Shown here piece by piece: positions 2,767-33,130 of a DNA stretch of 34,262 nucleotides. The translations under genes and the position numbers were made by a program. The stretch is from Chiloscyllium plagiosum (lineage: Eukaryota). How positions within the stretch are numbered: position 1 is the first letter of the stretch; each line of letters starts with the position of its first letter. The stretch is taken from contig NC_057749.1 in NCBI RefSeq assembly GCF_004010195.1, forward strand, positions 19,550,661 to 19,584,922. Reading direction: 5' to 3'. The notes beneath the pieces were generated by a model. It was not told the DNA's origin. It did no database searches and saw only the letters and a list, made by a program, of their open reading frames with translations.

Positions 2767-3094
2767 GAATCACAGTGCAGAAAGAGGCCACTTTGCCTAT
2801 CAAATCTGCACTGACCGTCTGAAGAGCATTCCACCCAGACCCATAACCCTGCATTTACCATGGCTGACCCATCTAGGCCTGCACATCCCTGGATACTATG
2901 CGCAATTTAGCACGGCCAATTCACCTAATCTGCACATCTTTGGATTGTGGGAGGAAACCGGAGTACCCGAAGGAAACCCATGCAGACACGGGGAGAATGT
3001 GCAAACCTCACACAGACAGTCACCCGGGGCTGGAATCGAACCTGGGTTCCTGGCACTCGGAGGCAGTAGTGCTAACCATTAAGCCACTGTGCTG
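2767..3094 (-). mobile_element. HE1 / V-SINE family SINE
   Basis: tRNA-like head with A/B boxes, V-domain 'gtgggtttccttcgggtactccggtttcctcccaca' on the minus strand, CR1-like tail. Confidence 0.85.
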
Positions 3095-3811: not shown

Positions 3812-4163
3812 GGGGCGGCACAATGGCTCTGGTTAGCACTGCTGCCTCACAGCGCCAGGGATCCGGGTTCGATTCCAGCCTTGGATGAGTGTCTGTGTGG
3901 AGTTTGCACGTTCTCCTGGTGTCTTCAAGGGTTTCCCCGGATGCTCTGGCTTTGTCCCACAATCACAAAGACATGCAGGTTAGGTGAATTGGCCACGCTA
4001 AATTGTCCATAGTGTTCAGGGATGTCTAGGTTAGGTGCATCATTCAGGGACGAATATAGAACAATAGGGTATGGGGAATGGGTCTGGGTGGGTTACTCTT
4101 GGAGGGTTGGTGTGGACCTTTTGGGCCAAATGGCCTGCTTCCACACTGTAGGGATTCTATGAT
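3812..4163 (+). mobile_element. HE1 / V-SINE, full length
   Basis: Head 'tggttagcactgctgcctcacagcgccagggatccgggttcgattcc', V-domain, tail ending 'gattctatgat'. Confidence 0.9.
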
Positions 4164-6011: not shown

Positions 6012-6334
6012 TTAGATTAGATTAGATTAGATTAGATTACTTACAGTGTGGAAACAGGCCCTTCGGCCCAACAAGTCCACGCCTACCCGCCAAAGCGCAA
6101 CCCACCCAGAACCATTTCCCCTACATTTACCCCTTCACCTAACACCACAGGCAATTTAGCGCGGCCAATTCACCTGACCTACACATTTTTGTGACTGTGG
6201 GAGGAAACCGGAGCACCCGGAGGAAACCCACACAGACACGGGGAGAATGTGCAAACTCCACACAGACAGTCGCCTGAGGCGAATTGAACTCTGGCACTGT
6301 GAGGCAGTAGTGCTAACTACTGTGCCACAGTGCC
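6012..6334 (-). mobile_element. HE1 SINE, young subfamily with (TTAGA)n tail
   Basis: (TTAGA)5 at 6012-6036. Close reverse complement of the copy at 20521-20846. Confidence 0.9.
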
Positions 6335-6577: not shown

Positions 6578-7995
6578 TATACATAAAAGATAAAAAGGGT
6601 AACTAGGGAGAGAATAGGGCCCCTCAAAGATCAGCAAGACGGCCTTTCTGTAGAGCCACAGAAAATGGGGGAGATACTAAACGAGTATTTTGCATCAGTA
6701 TTTATTGTGGAAAAGGATATGGAAGATATAGAATGTAGGGAAATAGATGGTGACACCTTGCAAAGTGTCCATTTTACAGAGGAGGAAGTGCTGGATGTCT
6801 TGAAACGCATAAATCCCCATTTACGCATAAACGCATAAATCCCCAGGACCTGATCAGGTGTACCCTAGAACTCTGTGGAAAGCTAGAGAAGTGATTGCTA
6901 GGCCTCTTGCTGAGATATTTGTATCATCGAAAGTCACAGGTGAGGTGCCAGAAGACTGGAAGTTGGCTAACATGGTGCCACTGTTTAAGAACGATGGTAA
7001 GGACAAGCCAGGGACTAAAGACCAGTGAGCCTGACATCGGTGGTGGTCAAGTTATTGGAGGGAATCATGAGGGACAGGATGTACATGTATTTGGAAAGGC
7101 AAGGACTGATTAGGGATAGTCAATATGGCTTTATGCGTGGGAAATCATGTCTCACAAACTTGATTGAGTTTTTTGAAGAAGTAACAAAGAGGATTGATGA
7201 GGGCAGAGTGGTAGATGTGATCTATTTGGNNNNNNNNNNNNNNNNNNNNNNNNNNNNNNNNNNNNNNNNNNNNNNNNNNNNNNNNNNNNNNNNNNNNNNN
7301 NNNNNNNNNNNNNNNNNNNNNNNTGTGAGGTGCTGCATTTTGGGAAAGCAAATCTTAGCAGGACTTATACACTTAATGGTAAGGTCTTAGGGAGTGTTGC
7401 TGAACAAAGATACCTTGGAGTGCAGGTTTATAGCTCCTTGAAAGTGGAGTTGCAGGTAGATAGGATAGTGAAGAATGCATTTGGTATGCTTTCTTTTATT
7501 GGTCAGTGTATTGAATACAGGAGTTGGGAGGTCATGTTGTGGCAGTACAGGACATTGGTCCGGCCACAGTTGGGATATTGCGTGCAGTTCTGGTCTCCTT
7601 CCTATCAGAAGGATATTGTGAAACTTGAAAGGGTTCAGAAAAGATTTACAAGGATATTGCCAGGGTTGGAGGATTTGAGCTATAGGGAGAGGCTGAACAG
7701 GCTTGGGCTGTTTTCCCTGGAGTGTCGGAGGTTGAGGGGTGACCTTATAGAGGTTTACCAAAATCATGAGGGGCATGGATAGGATAAATAGACAAAATCT
7801 TATCCTGGGGTGGGGGAGTCCAGAACTTGAGGGCATAGATTTAGGGTGAGAGGGGAAAGATATAAAACAGACCGAAGGGACAACTGTTTCACGCAGAAGT
7901 GGTACGTGAATGGAATGAGCTGCCAGAGGAAGTGATGGAGGCTGGTACAATTGCAACATTCAAAAGGCATTTGGATGGGTATATGAATAAGAAGG
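6578..7995 (+). mobile_element. CR1/HER1 LINE ORF2 (RT) remnant, part 1
   Basis: KSPGPD, SLTSVVVKLLE, QYGFMRGKSCLTNL, YCVQFWSP and LECRRLRGDL motifs. Several frameshifts and an N gap. Confidence 0.9.
7230..7323. other. Assembly gap (94 N)
   Basis: Run of N. Confidence 0.99.
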
Positions 7996-9427
7996 TAAAA
8001 ACAAGGACTGCAGATGCTGGAAACCAGAGTCCAGATTAGAGTGGTTCTGGAAAGGCTTAGCAGATCAGGCAGCATCTGAGGAGCAGGAAAATCGATGTTT
8101 CAGGCAAAAGTCCTTCAGGGTGTCTGCAGAATGGAGAGATAAACGAGAGGAGGGTGGGGGTGGCAAGAAAGTAGTATAGAGTACAATAGGTGAATGGTGG
8201 TGGGATGGAGGCGATAGGTCAGAGAGGAGGGTGCATTGGATATGTGGGAAGGAAGATCGGCAGGTAGGACAGATCATGAGGGCAGTGCTGAGCTGGAAGG
8301 TTGGAGCTGGGTGAGGTGGGGAAGGGGAAATGAGGAAACTGGTGAAATCCACATTGATGCCATAGAGTTGAAGTGTTCCAAGGCGGAAGATGAGGCATTC
8401 TTCCTCCAGGCGTCGGGTGGTGAGGGAGCGACGGTGGAGGAGGTCTAGGACCTGCATGTCCTCGGCAGAGCGGAAGGGGAAGTTGAAATGTTGGGCCACA
8501 GGGTGGTGGGTTTGATTGGTGCGGGCGTCCCAGAGATGTGCCCTAAAGCGCTCTGCTAGGAGACATCCAGTCTTCCCAATATAGAGGAGACCACATCGGG
8601 AGCAACGGATACGATCAATTATATTGGTGGATGCGCAGGTAAAACTTTGATGGATGTGGAAGGCTCCTTTGGGGCCTTGGATGGTGGTGAGGGAGGAGGT
8701 GTGGGCACAGGTTTTGCAAGTCCTGCGGTGGCGGGGGAGGGTGCCAGGAATGGAGGATGGGTTGTTGGGGCGCGTGGACGTGACCAGGTAGTCAAGGAGG
8801 GAATGGTCTTTGCGGAAAGTGGAAATGGGTGGGGAGGGAAATATATCCCTGGTGGTGGGGTTCGTTTGGAGGTGGCAGAAATGTCTTCGGATGATGTGGT
8901 TTATGTGAAGGTTGGTAGAGTGGAAGGTGAGCACCAAGGGGGTTCTGTCCTTGTCAAGTCGGTCGTCATTAATGGAGATGGAGTGGTCCAGGAAGGGGAG
9001 GGAGGTGTCAGAGATGGTCCAGGTGAATTTAAGGTAGGGGTGGAATATATTGGTGAAGTTGATGAATTGCTCAACCTCCTCGCGGGAGCACGAGGTGGTG
9101 CCAATGCAATCATCAATGTCGCGGAGGAAGAGATGGGAAGTGGTGCCGGTGTAACTACGGAAGATGGACTGTTCTACGTAGCCAACAAAGAGACAGGCAT
9201 TGCTGGGGCCCATACGGGTTCCCATGGCTACCCCTTTGGTCTCAAGGAAGTGGGAGGATTCGAAGGAGAAATTGTTAAGGGTGAGGACCAGTTCAGCCAA
9301 ACAAATGAGAGTGTTGGTGGAGGGGTACTGTTGGGGACCTCGGGAGAGGAAGAAATGGAGGGCTTGGAGGCTCTGGTCATGGCGGATGGAGGTATAGAGG
9401 GATTGGATATCCATGGTGAAGATGAGT
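7996..9427 (-). mobile_element. Penelope-like retroelement (PLE), 5'-truncated, inserted in the CR1
   Basis: RT plus GIY-YIG ORF. GAAGG on both sides (7991-7995, 9428-9432). The CR1 is contiguous once the insert is removed. Confidence 0.9.
8065..9414 (-). pseudogene. PLE reverse transcriptase-GIY-YIG endonuclease ORF remnant
   Basis: MDIQSLYTSI, GVAMGTRMGPS, FLRDIDD (YIDD altered), Cys linker TCKTC..FTC, NIIDRIRCSRCGLLYIGKT..RFRAH. Apparent in-frame internal deletion near 8953. Confidence 0.85.
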
Positions 9428-9553
9428 GAAGGGTTTGGAGGGATATGGGTTGGGTGCTGGCAGGTGGGACTAGATTGGGTTGGGATATCTGGTCAGCATG
9501 GATGGGTTGGACCAAAGGGTCTGTTTCCATGCTGTACATCTCTATGACTCTAT
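9428..9553 (+). mobile_element. CR1/HER1 LINE 3' UTR, part 2
   Basis: Matches the 3' UTR at 15558-15682 and ends 'ctctatgactctat'. Confidence 0.9.
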
Positions 9554-13773: not shown

Positions 13774-14113
13774 GGCAGCACAATGGTTCAGTGGTTCACA
13801 GTGCCAGGGATCTGGGTTCGATTCCAGTCTCAGGTGACTGTGTGGAGTTTGTACATTCTCCCCATGTCTGCGTGGGTTTCTTCCAGGTACTCTGGTTTCC
13901 TCCCACAGTCCAAAGATGAGCCGGTCAGGTGAACTGGCCATGCTAAATTGCCCCATAGTGTTCAGGGATGTGTAGGTTAGATGCTTTGGTCAGGGGTAAA
14001 TGTAGAGTAATAGGTTGGGTTATGGGTCTGGGTGGATTACTCTTCAGCAGGTCAATGTGGACTTGTTTAATCAAATGGCCTGTTTCCACATGTAGGGATT
14101 CTATGATTCATGA
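13774..14113 (+). mobile_element. HE1 / V-SINE
   Basis: B-box gggttcgattcc, V-domain, 'gggattctatgatt' tail. Confidence 0.9.
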
Positions 14114-16483: not shown

Positions 16484-18299
16484 GTTTTTTTAACTCATTT
16501 GTGGGATGTTGGTGTTGCTGGCTGGCCAGCATTTATTGTCCATCTCTAGTTGTCCTTGAGAAGGTGGTAATGAGCTGCCATCTTGAACCGCTGCGGTCCA
16601 CCTGCTGTGGGTTGACCCACAATGCCATTAGGGAGGGCATTCCAGGATTTTGTCCAAGCAACAATGAAGGAACTGTGACATATTTCCAAGTCAGGATGGT
16701 GAGCGGCATGCAGCAGAAGTTGCAGGTGATGGTGTTCCCATATATCTGCTGCCCTTGCCCTTCCAGTTGGAAGTGATCATGTGTTTGTAAGGTGCTACCT
16801 GAGGATCTTTGGTGAATATCTGCAGTGCACCTGGTAGATAGTACACATTGCTGCTCCTGTGTGTCAGTGGTGGAGGGAATAGATGCTTATGGATGTAGTG
16901 CCAATCAAGCCAGCTGCTTTGTCCTGGATGGTGTCAAGCTTCTTGAGTGCTGTTGGAACTGCACTCATCCAGGCAAGTGGGGAGTATTCCATCACTTTTC
17001 TGACGTGCCTTATGGACGGTGGACGGCTTTCGAGATCAGGAGGTGAGTTACTTACCGCAGTATTCCTAGCCTCTGACCTGCTCTTGCAGCCACTATGTTC
17101 ATTTAGTGAGTCTAGTTGAGTCTGGCGGGGGATTCAGTAGTGGTAACGTCATTAAATGTCAAGGGGCAGTGGTTAGGTTGTCTCTTATTGGTAATGCTGA
17201 AAATGTGTTGCTGGAAAAACGCAGCAGGTCAGGCAGCATCCAAGGAACAGGAGAATCGACGTTTCGGGCATAAGCCCTTCTTCAGGAATGATTCCTGAAG
17301 AAGGGCTTATGCCCGAAACGTCGATTCTCCTGTTCCTTGGATGCTGCCTGACCTGCTGCGTTTTTCCAGCAACACATTTTCAGCTCTGATCTCCAGCATC
17401 TGCAGCCCTCACTTTCTCATCTTATTGGTAATGGTCATAGCCTGGCATTTGTGTGGCACAATTGTTACTTGCCACTTGTCAGCTCAAGCCTGGATATTGT
17501 CCAGATCTTGTTGCTTTTGAACATGGACTGCTTCAGTATGGGAGGAGTCTGAATAGTGTGGAACATTGTGCAACCATTGGCCAATATCCCCACTTCTGAT
17601 CTTATGATGGAGAGAAGGTCATTGATAAAGCCACTGAAGATGGTTGGGCCTAGGACACTACCCTGAGGAACTGATGTGATATCCTGGAGCTGAGATAACT
17701 GACCTCCAACAACAATGACCATGTGCCAGGTATGACTCCAACCAGCGGAGAGTTGGTCCCTGATACCCATTAATCCCAGTTTTGCTATGGCTCCTTGATG
17801 CTACACTCAGTTGAATGCAGCCTTGATGTCAAGGACTGTCACCCTCACCTCACCTCTACAATTCAGTTCTTTTGTCCACGTTTGGACAAAGGCTGCAATG
17901 AGCTCAGGAGCTGAGTGACCCTGGTGGAACCCAAACTGGGCATGACTGAGCGGGTTATTGCTGAGCAGGTGTTGCTTGCTAGCACTGTAGGTGATACCTT
18001 CCATCGCTAGACTGATGGATTGGAATTGGCCTGGTTGGAGTTGTCCTGCATTTTACATACAGGACATACCCGTGCAATTTTCCACATTGTTGGGTAGATA
18101 CCAGTGCTATAACGGTACTGGAACAGTTTGGCTAGGGGAGCAGCAAGTTTTGGAGCATAAGTCTTCAGTACTATTGCCACAATGTTGTCAGGTCCCATAG
18201 CCTTTGCAGTATCCAGTGTTTCCAACCATATCTTGATATCATATGGAGTGAATTGAATTGGCTGAAGACTGGCATCTGTAATACTGGGGACCACTGGAG
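16484..18299 (-). mobile_element. CR1/L2-group LINE RT remnant, 5'-truncated, nested in the CR1
   Basis: KAMGPDNI, WKIARVCPV, QFGFHQGHS, LDIKAAF and VPQGSVLGPT motifs. 3' tail with aataaa and a short A-run at 16485-16490. Confidence 0.85.
17197..17419 (+). mobile_element. Palindromic PLE-derived short element, family A, pristine copy
   Basis: Perfect 94-bp inverted repeat (17196-17289 / 17291-17384), 35-nt tail, perfect 14-bp TSD tcttattggtaatg (17183-17196 / 17420-17433). Confidence 0.92.
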
Positions 18300-18465
18300 G
18301 AGTGTCTTTAAGGTAGAGATAGATAGGTTCGTGATTAGCAAGGGAAGCAAAGGTTATGGAGAGAAGAAGAAATGGGGTTGAGAAACATATCAGCCATGAT
18401 CAAATGGCAGAGCAGACTTGATAGACCAGATGACCTAATTCTGCTCTCATATTGTATGGTCTTAT
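18300..18465 (+). mobile_element. CR1 LINE 3' end, part 2
   Basis: VFKVEIDRF followed by a CR1 3' UTR. Continues 16020-16483. Confidence 0.8.
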
Positions 18466-18540
18466 TATACAGGGTGATTGTACAGGGGTATAGATTACAC
18501 AAGTCCTCACAGGTCTGAATTGGGCTTGTACAGGGTTTGA

Positions 18541-18752
18541 GAGAGTGGTGCTGGAAAAGCGCAGCAAGTCAGGCAGCATCCGAGAAGCAGAAGAAATGAG
18601 GTTTCGGGCAAAGCCCTTCATCAGGAATTCTGATGAAGGGCTTTGCCCGAAACGTTGATTCTCCTATTCCTCAAATGCTGCCTGACCTGCAGTGCTTTTC
18701 CAACACCACACTCTCGACTCTAATCTCCAGCATCTACAGTCCTCACTTTCGC
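18541..18752 (+). mobile_element. Palindromic PLE-derived short element, family A
   Basis: Inverted arms centred near 18627 with the tail on the right. Imperfect TSD cttgtacagggtttga (18525-18540) / cttttacaggattgga (18753-18768). Confidence 0.85.
18625..18661 (+). ncRNA. Minimal type I hammerhead ribozyme-like motif
   Basis: GAATT-CTGATGA-A-GGGC-TTT-GCCC-GAAA-CGTT-GATTC: both core boxes, stem II hairpin, possible 5-bp stem I, and palindromic ACGT in place of stem III. Confidence 0.6.
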
Positions 18753-20520: not shown

Positions 20521-20846
20521 AGCACGGTGGCACAGTGGTTAGCACTGCTGCCTCGCAGCGCCAGAGACCCGGGTTCAATTCCCGACTCAGGCGACTGACT
20601 GTGTGGAGTTTGCACGTTCTCCCCGTGTCTGCGTGGGTTTCCTCCGGGTGCTCCGGTTTCCTCCCACAGTCACAAAGATGTGCAGGGTCAGGTGAATTGG
20701 CCATACTAAATTGCCCGTAGTGTTAGATAAGGGGTAAATGTAGGGGTATGGGTGGGTTTCGCTTTGGCGGGTCGGTGTGGACTTGTTGGGCCGAAGGGCC
20801 TGTTTCCACACTGTAATCTAATCTAATCTAAATCTAAATCTAAATT
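20521..20846 (+). mobile_element. HE1 SINE, young, CpG-rich, (AATCT)n tail
   Basis: Intact A box tggcacagtgg, B box gggttcaattcc, V-domain, microsatellite tail. Confidence 0.92.
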
Positions 20847-23376: not shown

Positions 23377-23694
23377 TTTCCCTTTTAAGATATTTTATAC
23401 AGATGTTCTATATTGATCGAAGATCTCAGATCGAATTAAGCTGTATAGTTTTGAGAAATTGGTTGGCAGCATTTTCTATCACTAGAGTGAGCTGCTGAGA
23501 TACAGCAAACCAGAGTCAACAGCATGTGTGCCAGAGATCTAAAGAAATGACCAGTGACTCCAAACACAAATGCCACCTGCTTTCCCCTTCCCATACATAA
23601 ACACTTTGCCACTTAGAGAATAGGCTTTATTGTACAAATTGTAGCAGAGGTATGAGATTACATGCACCGTGTGGTAAACTCCTTATTGTTCAAG

Positions 23695-23870
23695 TTGGGA
23701 GTGTGGTGCTGGAAAAGCACACGCGGCATCTGAGGAGCCAGAGATTCTGATGAAGGGCTTTTGCGCGAAACATCAACTCTCCTGCTCCTCGGATGTTGCC
23801 TGACCTGCTGTGCTTTTCCAGCACCATGCTCTCGACTCTAATCGCCAGCACCTGCAGTCCTCACTTTCGC
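23695..23870 (+). mobile_element. Palindromic PLE-derived short element, family A, left arm shortened
   Basis: Perfect 16-bp TSD ctccttattgttcaag (23679-23694 / 23871-23886). CTGATGA..GAAA at 23747-23770. Confidence 0.88.
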
Positions 23871-26049: not shown

Positions 26050-26210
26050 CAGAAAGTGAGGACTGCAGATGCTGGAGTACCAGAGTTGAAAAATGTAGTG
26101 CTGGAAAAACACAGCAGGCCAGGCAGCATCCAAGGAGCAGGCGAATCACTGCTCTCCTGCTCCTCGGATGCTGCCTGGCCTGCTGTGTTTTTGCAGCATC
26201 ACATTTTTCA
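26050..26210 (-). mobile_element. Palindromic PLE-derived short element, family A, centre deleted, nested in the L1
   Basis: TSD actcttttttttccaag (26033-26049 / 26211-26227). Arms meet near 26148 without the hammerhead boxes. Confidence 0.88.
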
Positions 26211-26302
26211 ACTCTTTTTTTTCCAAGTCTGACTTGTAACACTGTGCCAGGAGCGTGGTCTTCCTCTGTGTATAGTCCCTTATCTGAAAGTACGGAGAAG
26301 GT

Positions 26303-26670: not shown

Positions 26671-29600
26671 TTCTGGCTTAACTGACTACCCTCTTGAACA
26701 AATCTCCTAGGCATGAGATTCCCTTATTGTCCATTAACTTAAAGCCGGAGTCCATTGCCCCAGGTTTAAATCCTTGGGCTCCCACTAACGAGGAAACGGC
26801 AAGGTCTTAGACCAATTGCCCTCGTCTTACCTCATTATCCTCCAGCCTTTCACCGTATTTAAAATGATTGGATTCTTACACTGCTCGGTCATGGATTTCA
26901 TCTTATCCATAAATAATAAATTAACTAGAGGATATCACGATTGCGGGGCTTCAATGTCAAACCAAATTGACTCCGAATTCCCCCATACCCAGTCACCAAC
27001 ATATGCTAAGAGCGCTTATTTGATATTTCTTCAAATCCAGAAAATCCACCCCTCCCTCATCCTCCAAAAGCTGCAATTTAGTAAACTTAATTAGAGGGCA
27101 TCTGTGGCACCAAATAAAGGACCCTAGCCAACTATTGTTGTCTGGGTAGCAACAACGGGAGCATTCTCATGTGATACAAGTGAGGAAGAACATTCATTTT
27201 AATCAGGGCTATTCGGCCCAACCATGACAACGGTAACTCCCTCCCACCGCTGCAGATCCTGTTTTATCCTCTCCAATAGTTGTACATAGTTAGCTTTATA
27301 CAGCTGGTGGAAGGAAGGGGTAATAAAAATTCCCAAATACAAAAAAACCTTTGATGACCATCTAAGCGGGAACTGCATTCCATCCTTCAGATTAGGCACC
27401 TCCACTAATTCCCCCACCAGTGTGGCTTCCGACTTTGTAATGTTGATCCTGTAGCCCAAGAAACCATCAAATAAATTAATTGTTTGAATCAGTCAAGGAA
27501 CAGACTTCTCCGGATAGGCCAAGAACAAAAGGTCATCAGCATATAGGGTGATCTTATGCTCCCGCATTCCCACCCTTGGCACCACAATTTCAGGATATCT
27601 TCTGAAAGCGTCAGCTAATGGCTCAATTGCCAAGGTGAATAATAGCGGTGAGAGAGGACACCCCTGTTAACTACCTCTCCCAATGTTAAAATTATCTGAC
27701 AGCATCGTTTGTAATGACTGCCGCCTTAGGATCATTATACAATACTGCCACCCATCTGGCAAAGGATCCCCCCAGACCAAAGTGTTCTCAGACCCCAGAT
27801 ACGGTCATTCTATCCGATTAAACATCTGTTCTGCATCTAGGGAGACCACCAAAACCGGGATCAATCTTTGCTAGCATACCTGCACCACGTTCAATAGCCT
27901 TCCGATATTGTTAGAGGAGCTATGGCCCTTAACAAAACCTGTCTGATCTTCTTTTATAATGGGGCAGGAACCTTTCCAACCTCTGAGCCAGCATCTTGGA
28001 TAAAATTTTAAAATCTACATTTAACAGTGAAATTGGTGTATGAGAAGCACATTCTTTAGGATCTTTCCCCTTCTTTAAAATGAGGGAGACATATTAGCCT
28101 CCCTAAGAGAAGGCAGCGGCCAATCCTGTTCATATGAATAGCTATACATCCCCAGAAGTAGCGCCACCAACACATTTATGAATTCCTTATAGAATTCACT
28201 TGGGAATCCATCTGGCCCTGGTGCTTTGCCATCCTGGAGATGCCTTATTACTTCCTGCACTTCCTGTACTGTTACAGGCGCATTCAATAAGGAAGCCTGT
28301 TCCGTATTTATACTGCGGAGGTCCAGATTCTCAAAAAAGGACTGTATTCTCGCTGCACCATGTTCACCTCCCTCCAACTGATATAGCTCTGTGAAGTATT
28401 CCCTAAATCTAACATTGATCTTCTTCAACTCACGGGTAATCGTACCAGCCTTCTCCCTAACAGACATGATAGATTGGGAAGCTGTTTTCCCCCAAGCCAA
28501 ATATGCCAGATATCTACCTGGCTTATCTCCAAATTCAAACAGTCTTTGTTTAGCAAAGGAGACCTCTTTTTTTAGCCATTCGTATGTGCAATGGGTCGAG
28601 AGCCATCTGGAGGGCCATGACCTGCTGCAACTTGACCAAAGAGGGCCTATTATAATATGTTTCCTCCACTATCTGCAGCTGGGCCTCCTGCATCCGATGT
28701 TGCTCCTCCCTCTGCCTCCTTCTAATCACAGAATATGAAATGATCAGGCCTCGTAAATATGCCTTAATGGCCTACCAAAGTATTGCCGGATTACTAGCCG
28801 TACCTGAGTTGATATCCCAGAAGGCCCCGAACTCTCTTCTGATGTACTAAACAAATTTGCTATCCCTTAACAGAAATGGTTCCATGCGCCAGTGCTGTGC
28901 ATCCATTCCACTACCCTTGATTTTAACATCTAAATACACTGGCGCATGATCCGAGACAGCTATATTCACAATTTTGCACTCCAATGTTCAGTCCAAACTG
29001 TCATTTGGCATTAAAAAAATGTCACCTTGCATATGGCACTTGTGTGGGTTGGAGTAGAAAGTAAAGTCTCTTCCATTAGGGTGGAGATGCCTCCACATGT
29101 CCACTAGTCCCAACTCTTCACACATGTCCACCAACTGCTTAGATTGTGCGGGCATACCTGCCAGGTCTTTTGGCACCCTGTCAACTTCGGGATCTGTTAG
29201 GTGATTAAAATCCCCTCCTATGATCGTGTGGCGCACCCCAAGATTCATTAATTTAGCAACTGTATCAATTAGAAATTTAAGATGGTTCACCATGGGACAA
29301 TATACATTCAAGACGCTATACTCCTCTCCATGTATTAGGGCTTTAAGAATGATAAACTGTCCATGTTTGTCCTGAATCTGCTTTGTTACCTGGAAAGGGA
29401 GGATCCTTCTTACCGGTATAGGCACTCCTCTACTCTTAGAGCTGAAGGAGGAGAAGAATACCCTGCCATAACCCCCCCCGCTGCAGTTTCAGATGTTCCT
29501 TATCAGTTAGAAGCATCTCTTGCAGTAGGGCGATGTCCACCCTTTCCTTCCTAAGGCTTGACAACATCTTCCTTCTTTTAATAGGAGAATGGCTCTCTTT

Positions 29601-29805: not shown

Positions 29806-32309
29806 TAAATTTAAATTTAAAATCTTTAAATTAATTTAACAATTCTGGGTAGGAGTGAAAGGAACAGGTTAGTCATTATGGGGGACTTGAACTTCCCCAA
29901 TATTGACTGGAAATGCTATAAATCTGCTATAAATGCTATAAATCGTCAGATGGATCAGTTTTTGTACAATGTGTGCAGGAGGGTTTCCTGACACGGAATG
30001 GCAAAGGGCCAACAACAGAGGTGACCATACTGGATCTGGTACTTCGTAATGAACCAGGCCAGGTTTTTGATTTAGTTGTAGATGAGCACTTTGGTGATAG
30101 TGACCATAATTTGGTTACGTTTAATTTAGTGATGGAAAGGGATTGATACACACCACAGAGCAAGGGTTATAGATGGGAGAAGGGCAATTATAATGCGATC
30201 AGACAAGACTTAGGAGGCATAGAAAGGGATAGCAAAATACAAGGAATGGGGACAGTTGAAATTGGGAGCTGGTTTAAGGAATAGATATTGTGTGCCCTCG
30301 ATGGGTATGTCTCTGTCAGGGAAGGAGGAAGTGATAAGGGAAGGGAATCGTGGTTTACTAAATAAAAAGTATCTTTTGTTACGTGGAAGAGGGAGGCTTA
30401 TGTGACGTTGAGACAAGATGGTTCAGATGAGGCAATGGAGAGTTACAGATTAGCTAAGAAGAGCAAGGAGGGGACATGAGCAGTCATTAGTAGGTAGAAT
30501 AAAGGAGAACCCTAAAGCTCTCTATAGGTATGTGAGGAATAAAAGGATGACTAGGATAGGAATAGCGCCAGTCAAAGACAGAAGTGGGAAGTTGTGTGTG
30601 GACTCTGTGGAAATCTGAGAGGTGCGAAACGAATATTTCTCATCTGTTTTCACTCAGGAAAAGGAGAATATTGTAGAGGAGAAGACTGAGATATGGGTTA
30701 TTAGACTAGAAAGGATTGAGGTTAGTAAGGAGGAGGTGTTATCAGTCTAGATGTGTGAAAGTAGATAAGTCCCCTGGGCCGGATGGTATTTATCCGAGGA
30801 TACTCTGGGAAACCAGGGAGGACATGGCAGAGCCTTTGGCCTTGATTTTTGAGTAGTCATTGTCTACAGGTTTAATCCAGAGGACTGGAGGATTGCAAAT
30901 GTTGTGGCCTTGTTCAAAAAGGGCAGTAGAGATGACCCAGATAATTATAGACCAGTGAGCCTTACGTCTGTTGTAGGAAAGGTTTTGGAAAGGATTATAA
31001 GAGATAGGATTTATAATCATTTAACAAGTAACAATTTGATTGGAGTTAGTCAACATGGTTTCATCAAGGGCAGGTCATGTCTCACAAATGTCTTGAGTTT
31101 TTTGAGGAGGTGACCTAGCATATGGATGAGGGTAGGTTAGTTGACGTGGTATACATGGACTTCAGTAAAACCTTTGATACAGTTCCACATCATAGACTGT
31201 TGGAGAAAATACGGAGGCATGGGATTGAGGGTGATTTAGCAGTTTGGATTAGAAATTGGCTTTCTGTAAGAAAGCAGCAAGTGGTGGTTGATGGAAAATA
31301 TTCAGCCTTGAGTCTGGTTACTAGTGATGTGCCACAAGGATCTGTTTTGGGACCACTGCTGTTTATCATTTTTATAAATGACTTGGATGCAGGCATAGGT
31401 GGATGGGTTTGTAAGTTTGCAGATGACGCTAAAGTCGGTGGAGTGGTGGACAGTATGGAAGAATGTTGCAGGTTACAGGATCTTGGATAAACTGCAGAAT
31501 TGGGCTGAGAGGTAGCAAATGGACTTCAATGCAGGTAAATGTGAAGCGATTCACTTTGGAAAGAATAACAGGGAGGTAGAATGCTGGGTCAATGGAAAGA
31601 TTCTTGATAGTGCAGATGTGCAGAGGGATCTTGGTGTCCATATACATAGATCCCTGAAAGTTGCCACCCAGGTTGATAGTGCTGTTAAGAAGGCATACGA
31701 TGTTTTAGGTTTTATTAGTAGAGGGATTTGAGTTCCGGAGCTGTGATGTCATGCTGCAACTGTATAAAATGCCAGTGTGGCTTCACTTGGAATATTGTGT
31801 ACAGTTCTGGTCGCTCTATTATAGGAAGGAATGTGGAAGCATTGGAAAAGATGGAGAGGATATTTACCAGGATGTTGCCTGGTCTGGGGGGAAGGTCTTA
31901 TGAGGAAAGACTGAGGGACTTGGGTCTGTACTCATCAGAGAGAAGAAGCCTAAGAGGAGATTTAATAGAGACATACAAGATGATCAGAGGATTAAATAGG
32001 GTGGACAGTGAGTCTTTCTTCTAGGATGATGACGTCGGCTTGTACAAGGGGGCATAGCTGCAAGTTGAGGGGTGATAGTTTTAAGACAGATGTCAGAGAC
32101 AGGTTCTTTCCTCAGAGAGTGGTAAGGGCGTGGAATGCCCTGCCCACCAATGTAGTTAACTCAGCCACATTAGGGGCATTTAAACAGTCCTTGGATAAGC
32201 ATATGGATGATGATGGGATAAGTGTAGGGGGATGGGCTTAGATTAGTTCACAGGTCGGCGCAACATTGAGGGCCGAAGGGCCTGATCTGCGCTGTATTGT
32301 TCGATGTTC
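29806..32309 (+). mobile_element. CR1/HER1 LINE, 5'-truncated, ORF2 disrupted
   Basis: VIMGDLNFP, GDSDHN, KSPGPDG, NYRPVSLTS, QHGF, DFSKTFD, VPQGSVLGP and FADD motifs. (TTCTATG)-like tail. AT-rich filler at 29806-29838. Confidence 0.92.
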
Positions 32310-32699: not shown

Positions 32700-33130
32700 A
32701 CAAAGAGCAGTACAGCACAAGACAACCTTCGGCCAACCATGTCTATGCTGACCATGATGCCATTCTAAACTAAGATGTGGAGGTGCCAGTGTTGTACTGG
32801 GGTGGACAAAGTTAAAAATCACACAACACCACCCCCATCCTCCACTGGTTATAGTCCAACAGGTTTATTTGGAAATACAAGCTTTTGGAGCATTGCTCCT
32901 CTGTCAGGTAGCTAGTGAAGCAGGATCATAGGACAGTGTCCTATGATGCTGCTCCACTAACTACCTGACAAAGGAGCAGCGCTTCGAAAGCTTGTACTTC
33001 CAAATAAACCTGTTGGACTATAACCTGGTGTTGTGTTATTTTTAATTCTAAAATAATCCCATCTGCCTGCACATGGTCAAATCCCTCTATTACCTGCTTA
33101 TTTATATGTCTGGCTAAGTGCTTTTTAAAT
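32700..33130 (-). mobile_element. CR1 3' UTR fragment interrupted by a family B palindrome
   Basis: 'cagtacagcacaagacaaccttcggccaaccatgtc' and 'tcccatctgcctgcacatggtc..ccctctat' are contiguous across the insert. Confidence 0.7.
32774..33044. mobile_element. Palindromic PLE-type short element, family B
   Basis: Inverted arms centred at 32936 with a left tail. TSD attctaaactaa (32762-32773) / attctaaaataa (33045-33056). Degenerate CTGACAA..GAAA at 32965-32989. Confidence 0.82.

Follow-up and report, generated by a model that had tools for sequence, protein, structure and literature searches.

A perfect palindrome in a shark genome as a probable head-to-head insertion of Penelope-like element 3' ends

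The window analysed here, a 34,262-nt stretch of contig NC_057749.1 from the Chiloscyllium plagiosum assembly GCF_004010195.1, carries at 17183-17433 an exact palindrome together with its flanking repeats. Sequence comparison verified that its arms (17196-17289 and 17291-17384) are 94-nt exact reverse complements around a single central G at 17290, with four CpGs intact in each arm; the longest perfect arm in shuffled versions of the window (n = 20) was only 7-11 nt. The palindrome is flanked on the plus strand by a 14-nt direct repeat, the left and right target-site duplications (TSDs) at 17183-17196 and 17420-17433. The final base of the left repeat (17196) is common to the arm, and the TSD length is therefore 13-14 nt. 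A 35-nt tail (17385-17419, plus strand) lies between the right arm and the right TSD and is absent from the left arm, which makes the insertion asymmetric. The total insert measures 223 nt and contains no ORF. A sequence-only reading of the window had reported the 94-bp arms with their 1-nt centre and intact CpGs, the 14-bp TSD, hammerhead boxes on both strands, and seven palindromes of two families; all of these were found again, the palindromes dividing into five from family 1 and two from family 2.

The insertion breaks a decayed reverse transcriptase (RT) frame on the minus strand (17434-18400, continuing left of 17183), followed through its translations, whose motifs we take to be those of a LINE RT. 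Pfam returned no match in the host portion 18007-18399. Read by eye, the interrupted frame is in phase on either side of the insert, which marks the 14-nt repeat as a true TSD. No empty-site paralogue spanning the insertion site occurred among the fetched loci, and no empty-site joint occurred among the 15 joints listed from the DNA sequencing runs (1,918 more were unlisted). Family 1 is further represented in the window by two older hairpins (2408-2572 and 18539-18715), a degenerate one (23693-23837), and one joined downstream of the hammerhead so that the core is lost (26082-26215). The family-2 hairpins lie at 1746-1853, where the hammerhead core has compensatory changes in stem II, and at 32847-33025, with a degenerate core. 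The window also holds another dispersed repeat family, with copies in either orientation (2902-3093, 3830-4016, 6041-6281, 13835-13951, and 20521-20816) and decayed LINE endonuclease and RT fragments at 28075-29488 (minus strand), 7019-7782 (plus), and 31119-31490 (plus).

The identity of the arms was approached through a decayed Penelope-like element (PLE) ORF of a related, older subfamily at 8065-9492 (minus strand), which shows an RT, a C-rich linker motif, and a GIY-YIG-like endonuclease (EN). Its RVT_1 match in Pfam is weak and below the cut-off (E = 1e-4); Pfam gave no GIY-YIG match, and the EN motifs were read by eye. The ORF is shorter by ~250 nt than most of its relatives, and a first look with its protein gave 311,902 genome candidates. 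At its 3' end (8004-8116, minus strand) lies an arm with tail that is 77% identical to the arm and tail of the 17183-17433 copy. Among 15 PLE loci fetched with this protein, the arm, with or without the tail, sits directly 3' of an RT-GIY-YIG ORF in 14; the linker motif is present in 9, several of them degenerate. That motif is a criterion for the Neptune and Nematis clades (PMC8557442). Judged from these sequence relationships, arm and tail are the 3' end (pLTR) of a Neptune-type PLE, the linker motif being shared with Nematis. The left arm is a tail-less, inverted copy of the 3' part of the pLTR (17196-17289, minus strand) whose outer end falls at the inner edge of the tail, and the sense arm (17291-17384, plus strand) begins at the A of TCATTCC; the central G joins the two copies at a position where the native base is C. 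The tail is of the kind described in PMC3846280, PMC8557442, and PMC11167929. What we find at the locus, namely pLTR identity, an adjacent inverted and 5'-truncated copy, a 35-nt tail, and a TSD, are the marks of an insertion by an EN+ PLE. A MITE or other DNA transposon was rejected: the tail breaks the symmetry, TSD length varies, and the sequence is that of a retroelement end.

The sense strand carries CTGAAGA at 17295-17301, a stem II of GGGC-TTAT-GCCC at 17303-17314, and GAAA at 17315-17318, all mirrored on the minus strand. Together these form a candidate type I minimal hammerhead core at 17295-17322 (plus strand; CUGAAGA, an extra A, a 4-bp stem II, GAAA, and a palindromic ACGU), with a predicted cleavage point after 17322 and a mirror core at 17258-17285 (minus strand). 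Conserved core, stem II, and palindromic stem III are all present. The earlier proposal of a PLE-derived element with a minimal hammerhead agrees with the match of the motif to the description in PMC4209133 and with the identity of the arm as a PLE 3' end. The resemblance to metazoan PLE minimal type I hammerheads extends to the core boxes, the extra base before stem II, a G-C first pair, a palindromic stem III, and a short stem I (PMC4209133); hammerheads in pLTRs have been described before (PMC6765202). Rfam gave no hammerhead match at E<=1 for the locus and only sub-threshold miRNA models; a microRNA precursor was rejected, mir-680 reaching only 35.9 bits where the cut-off is 104. Within family 1, stem II hardly varies, and it differs by two compensatory pairs from one family-2 copy. 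The family-1 hairpin at 26108-26191 scores 55.2 bits against Rfam mir-2756 (cut-off 61), and hairpins of this kind may mimic miRNA precursors in annotation.

Computed folding places the full RNA in a single hairpin (-194 kcal/mol, z -26.7); one arm by itself is no more stable than its shuffled versions (z 0.07). Freeing the hammerhead core from this hairpin is predicted to cost ~40 kcal/mol, in line with the earlier suggestion that the hairpin masks the ribozyme, and by folding energy a transcript of the hairpin should not be able to form the core. Any one transcript of the locus holds one sense hammerhead and its antisense, which rules out a cis dimer. Minimal type I hammerheads are reported to show no activity as monomers and little as dimers (PMC4209133). 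We infer from the modelled folding that the ribozyme would be inactive in the hairpin insertion. PMC4209133 mentions opposite-strand hammerhead pairs 100-700 bp apart for metazoan PLEs; unlike those hammerheads, the two candidate motifs here lie 10 nt apart inside a perfect hairpin in which a cis dimer is impossible.

Exact-word matches were counted across 3.56 Gb of genome. One exact arm-tail 32-mer has 33,629 matches and a 28-mer of the youngest subfamily has 15,130, numbers that bear out the claim of a large family. The related claim of recent activity has only loose support: the 17183-17433 copy lies outside the youngest subfamily, and its symmetry may be partly converted. The first 30 matches of the 32-mer, taken as an unselected sample, represent 29 elements. 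Of these, 16 carry an inverted arm, 10 are monomers, and 3 lie next to N-gaps. Except for the pair L072/L076, the hairpin junctions in this sample are all different. This abundance of inverted arms with varied centres argues that most hairpins are built at insertion. In the youngest subfamily, the 100 matches listed include 19 head-to-head pairs and no tail-to-tail pair, and 16 close pairs among them show 11 different spacings. The L072/L076 junction was considered as a genome-wide lineage and rejected, having 2 matches only, 114 kb apart; L072/L073 is a two-tailed hairpin without a TSD, and L076, 114 kb from it and sharing its complex junction, is a one-tailed hairpin with a 16-nt TSD.

The exact 33-nt centre of the 17183-17433 copy recurs at 400 loci, of which 50, together with the window copy, were examined as a same-centre set of 51. 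These loci span four subfamilies and both polarities. TSDs of 12-18 nt flank 42 of the 51, and in 39 the tail-less arm ends at alignment position 90-105. With the N-masked L001 left out (n = 50), exactly one tail is present in 48 hairpins, none in 2, and two in 0. Independent choice per arm allows at most 50% one-tailed products, under which the observed excess has P of about 1e-12. Read with the tail to the right, the centre base is C in 27 loci, G in 23, and T in 1. The near balance of C and G prompted us to consider flip-flop (rolling-hairpin) replication, which was rejected: a native C of either arm or an added base suffices, and junctions vary.

The 5' ends of the arms fall upstream of the ribozyme cut. 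Among 30 sense arms, 24 have their start in the interval from -7 to +19 relative to the arm (2 of the 24 being bounded by N), and none begins at the predicted cut (+33). At +1, the A of TCATTCC, 4,095 non-native junctions were counted, against 1,114 at +5. TCATTCC fits the initiator (Inr) consensus, and a short pLTR transcript starting at +1 would explain the positions of the hairpin centres. An extra G was seen by eye, with no statistic attached, at ~66 of 100 listed junctions at +1 versus ~52 of 100 at the +5 control; G is common at both positions, and cap copying is a possible source of the extra base.

The reading we favour, at a probability of roughly 0.7, is that the palindrome is a short insertion of a Neptune-type PLE in which two pLTR copies were joined head to head, most such hairpins being built at insertion and a minority serving later as templates. 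The PLE RT-endonuclease would cut both strands of the LINE ~14 nt apart, and one cut end would prime a cDNA at an outer RT start site, giving the arm with tail; the tail-less copy would start at an inner site, 35 nt upstream. Each cDNA would be extended until near the 5' terminus of a short pLTR RNA beginning just before the hammerhead, and the two would then be joined head to head. On this scheme uncut RNA would be copied, the hammerhead would be a passenger, and a minority of the hairpins would later act as templates and spread as non-autonomous units. The scheme leans on the Anolis PLE PAc, where reverse transcription can begin at either of two sites that border the tail, the enzyme cuts and extends both strands of the target, and a dimer is predicted; there the hammerhead cleaves with the help of protein and is dispensable for insertion (PMC11167929). 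PAc is a Poseidon element, of another family than the shark hairpins, and its biochemistry is transferred here by analogy. The two-tailed hairpin L072/L073 counts against the scheme.

On the present data, two-strand priming cannot be told apart from fold-back of one cDNA. Under the latter, the PLE origin is the same and the second arm would arise by self-priming of the first cDNA, extended to the tail boundary, before a jump to the other target strand. Self-priming has been proposed in PMC3846280, and fold-back likewise yields exactly one tail. It would also explain why both arms are always of one subfamily (across five diagnostic sites, none of the 42-50 evaluable loci has a chimeric pair of two subfamilies), a result that fits a single template, and why rare variants sit on both arms in a few loci, the 17183-17433 copy included. 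Against it, tail-less 3' ends occur on PLE bodies and on monomers without an inverted arm, which indicates that reverse transcription can start at the inner site independently, as it does in PMC11167929. In addition, many junctions have gaps or inserted bases and no fold-back palindrome, and L098 and L102 combine a long tail-less arm with a mere tail stump, a product that fold-back cannot make. We consider fold-back unlikely.

Evidence that some hairpins were copied after their formation comes from a two-base change, GAAA to GGAG, in the hammerhead core. This marker has 20 genome matches, all of which were read (L004, L017, and L098-L115). Eleven of them lie in hairpins of identical centre with the marker on the tail-less arm; in 10 of these hairpins the opposite arm has a normal core, and in L106 it is masked. 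Eight of these 11 hairpins have their own 13-15-nt TSD. The other three (L017, L100, and L101) have common flanks and no TSD on three chromosomes, were probably brought along inside some other repeat or a duplication, and were counted as one event, leaving nine independent insertions alike in centre and polarity. De novo joining would produce nine such agreeing events with a probability of 1e-9 even if this centre arose in 20% of joins. Gene conversion should not keep the polarity of the marker, unless the tail sets the polarity. The remaining 9 of the 20 copies are monomers, stumps, or a tandem unit, and with L017/L100/L101 again counted once the marker lies on a tail-less arm in 16 of 18 events. 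Native, non-hairpin upstream sequence in three marker copies (L103, L110, and L114) shows that the marker also lives in a non-hairpin source. A-to-I editing as the origin of the marker found no support, there being just two changes in 94 bp and the marker occurring also in these three non-hairpin copies. The spread of this core-broken lineage argues that movement of PLE arms is independent of an intact hammerhead core.

A second lineage is marked by its junction. L116 and L117, 3.5 Mb apart on contig C1, have a long asymmetric junction and 133 nt of captured flank in common; immediately past the tail their sequences cease to match, and a TSD could not be established in either of the two loci read. 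The L116-type junction has 199 genome matches and the flank boundary 300, and in 44 of the 71 junction matches on contigs C1-C9 the boundary follows at fixed spacing. From these sequence patterns, both lineages show signs of having been copied as whole units. Both belong to a sister subfamily of the 17183-17433 copy.

These lineages support a rival reading close to the class proposed in the sequence-only reading, in which the palindrome would be a compact hairpin retroelement of fixed form whose transcripts the PLE protein re-inserts as a unit. Nine independent insertions with one centre type and a two-base marker confined to the tail-less arm, eight of them with their own TSD, are what such a unit would leave, as are the 199-match junction with its fixed flank boundary, the complex junction common to L072 and L076, and the recurrence of the exact 33-nt centre at 400 loci. 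We nevertheless regard a fixed unit as an improbable account of the 17183-17433 copy. Both lineages are of another subfamily, 400 loci are few beside the 33,629 and 15,130 arm matches, and the centre is common to four subfamilies and both polarities, as expected of joined full-length cDNAs; moreover, the copy's own variant is paired in none of 100 listed matches. Shared junctions and markers in independent copies are true of two sister lineages and are not family-wide. A separate class of hairpin retroelement mostly falls away, the arms being a PLE's own 3' end and the centres varying, and survives as the two sister-subfamily lineages with inherited junctions. The 17183-17433 copy itself could derive from an inherited hairpin, given the 400 loci of common centre.

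The perfect symmetry of the copy calls for separate consideration. One of its arm variants sits on both arms; of the 191 genome matches to this variant, the 100 listed all show it unpaired, and its symmetric placement here must stem from copying, conversion, or collapse during assembly. The last two, conversion between the arms and assembly collapse, may contribute to the perfection seen here. An assembly artefact might be suspected more broadly, behind the symmetry or the hairpin itself: hairpins of the family often adjoin N-gaps (L001, L062, and L106), the private variant is on both arms, and no contig assembled from 3 DNA sequencing runs spans the 17183-17433 element. Such an artefact would have to supply an insert flanked by a TSD and an in-phase host frame, with a tail on one arm and the other arm stopping at the family boundary, in an assembly that keeps the arms of 44 of the 51 same-centre loci distinct by 1-12 mismatches. 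It could account for the perfection, not for the hairpin, and we hold it to be very improbable.

Returning to two pLTR copies joined at insertion, we tentatively extend the favoured reading, with slightly less than even confidence, to a coupled one-of-each use of the two RT start sites that gives one-tailed hairpins, some of which become ribozyme-independent, non-autonomous masters and are re-copied whole to tens or hundreds of loci, taking with them an inherited junction, a marker on a single arm, or captured host DNA.

The inverted pLTR and tail architecture is of a known kind, and what we add are the one-tail rule and the unit-copied lineages. Inverted pLTRs with a junction palindrome, a one-sided tail, and a TSD are published (PMC3846280; PMC8557442; PMC2377424), and complex insertions of EN+ PLEs have an inverted 5'-truncated pLTR, a 30-40-bp tail, and a TSD (PMC3846280; PMC8557442). 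Our insertion resembles the latter in its head-to-head inverted pLTR, junction palindrome, one-end tail, TSD, and partner ORF with RT and C-terminal GIY-YIG; it differs in being a 223-nt insert without an ORF, in its tens of thousands of copies, and in the inheritance of some junctions. With PAc Poseidon of Anolis (PMC11167929) the likeness is mechanistic, in that two tail-bounding RT starts, two-strand extension, and a dispensable hammerhead would explain the arm ends seen here; the partner in the shark differs by its Neptune/Nematis-type linker motif, and the portions of that paper covered here take up neither inverted products nor a one-tail rule. Literature searches turned up neither the family, nor a strict rule of one tail per hairpin, nor lineages with inherited hairpins; repeat databases such as Repbase or Dfam may already list the family.

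The transposition cycle of PLEs has yet to be defined, and the literature covered here offers no explanation for their inverted products. Tens of thousands of young, short insertions turn the problem into countable constraints (one tail, head-to-head polarity, and 5' ends upstream of the ribozyme cut) that lend themselves to testing in the available in vitro PLE system. The many short, perfect hairpins might in addition burden the cell with dsRNA and complicate genome assembly; the Dicer, ADAR, and cruciform roles suggested by the sequence-only reading are hypothetical. Tandem non-autonomous PLE derivatives have been described as non-LTR retrozymes (bioRxiv 10.64898/2026.07.22.740005), with which the present insert shares its non-autonomous, pLTR-derived, and hammerhead-bearing nature; unlike their head-to-tail arrays, it is head-to-head with a TSD. 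A non-LTR retrozyme was rejected for the locus on this arrangement, there being no tandem array. If hairpins act as masters, they would be a second PLE route to non-autonomous families besides the tandem retrozymes. Retrozyme-like, head-to-tail hammerhead units do occur elsewhere in the genome, in the sister, youngest subfamily, with a unit of 224 nt in L119:1-395 and of 197 nt in L103:1-300.
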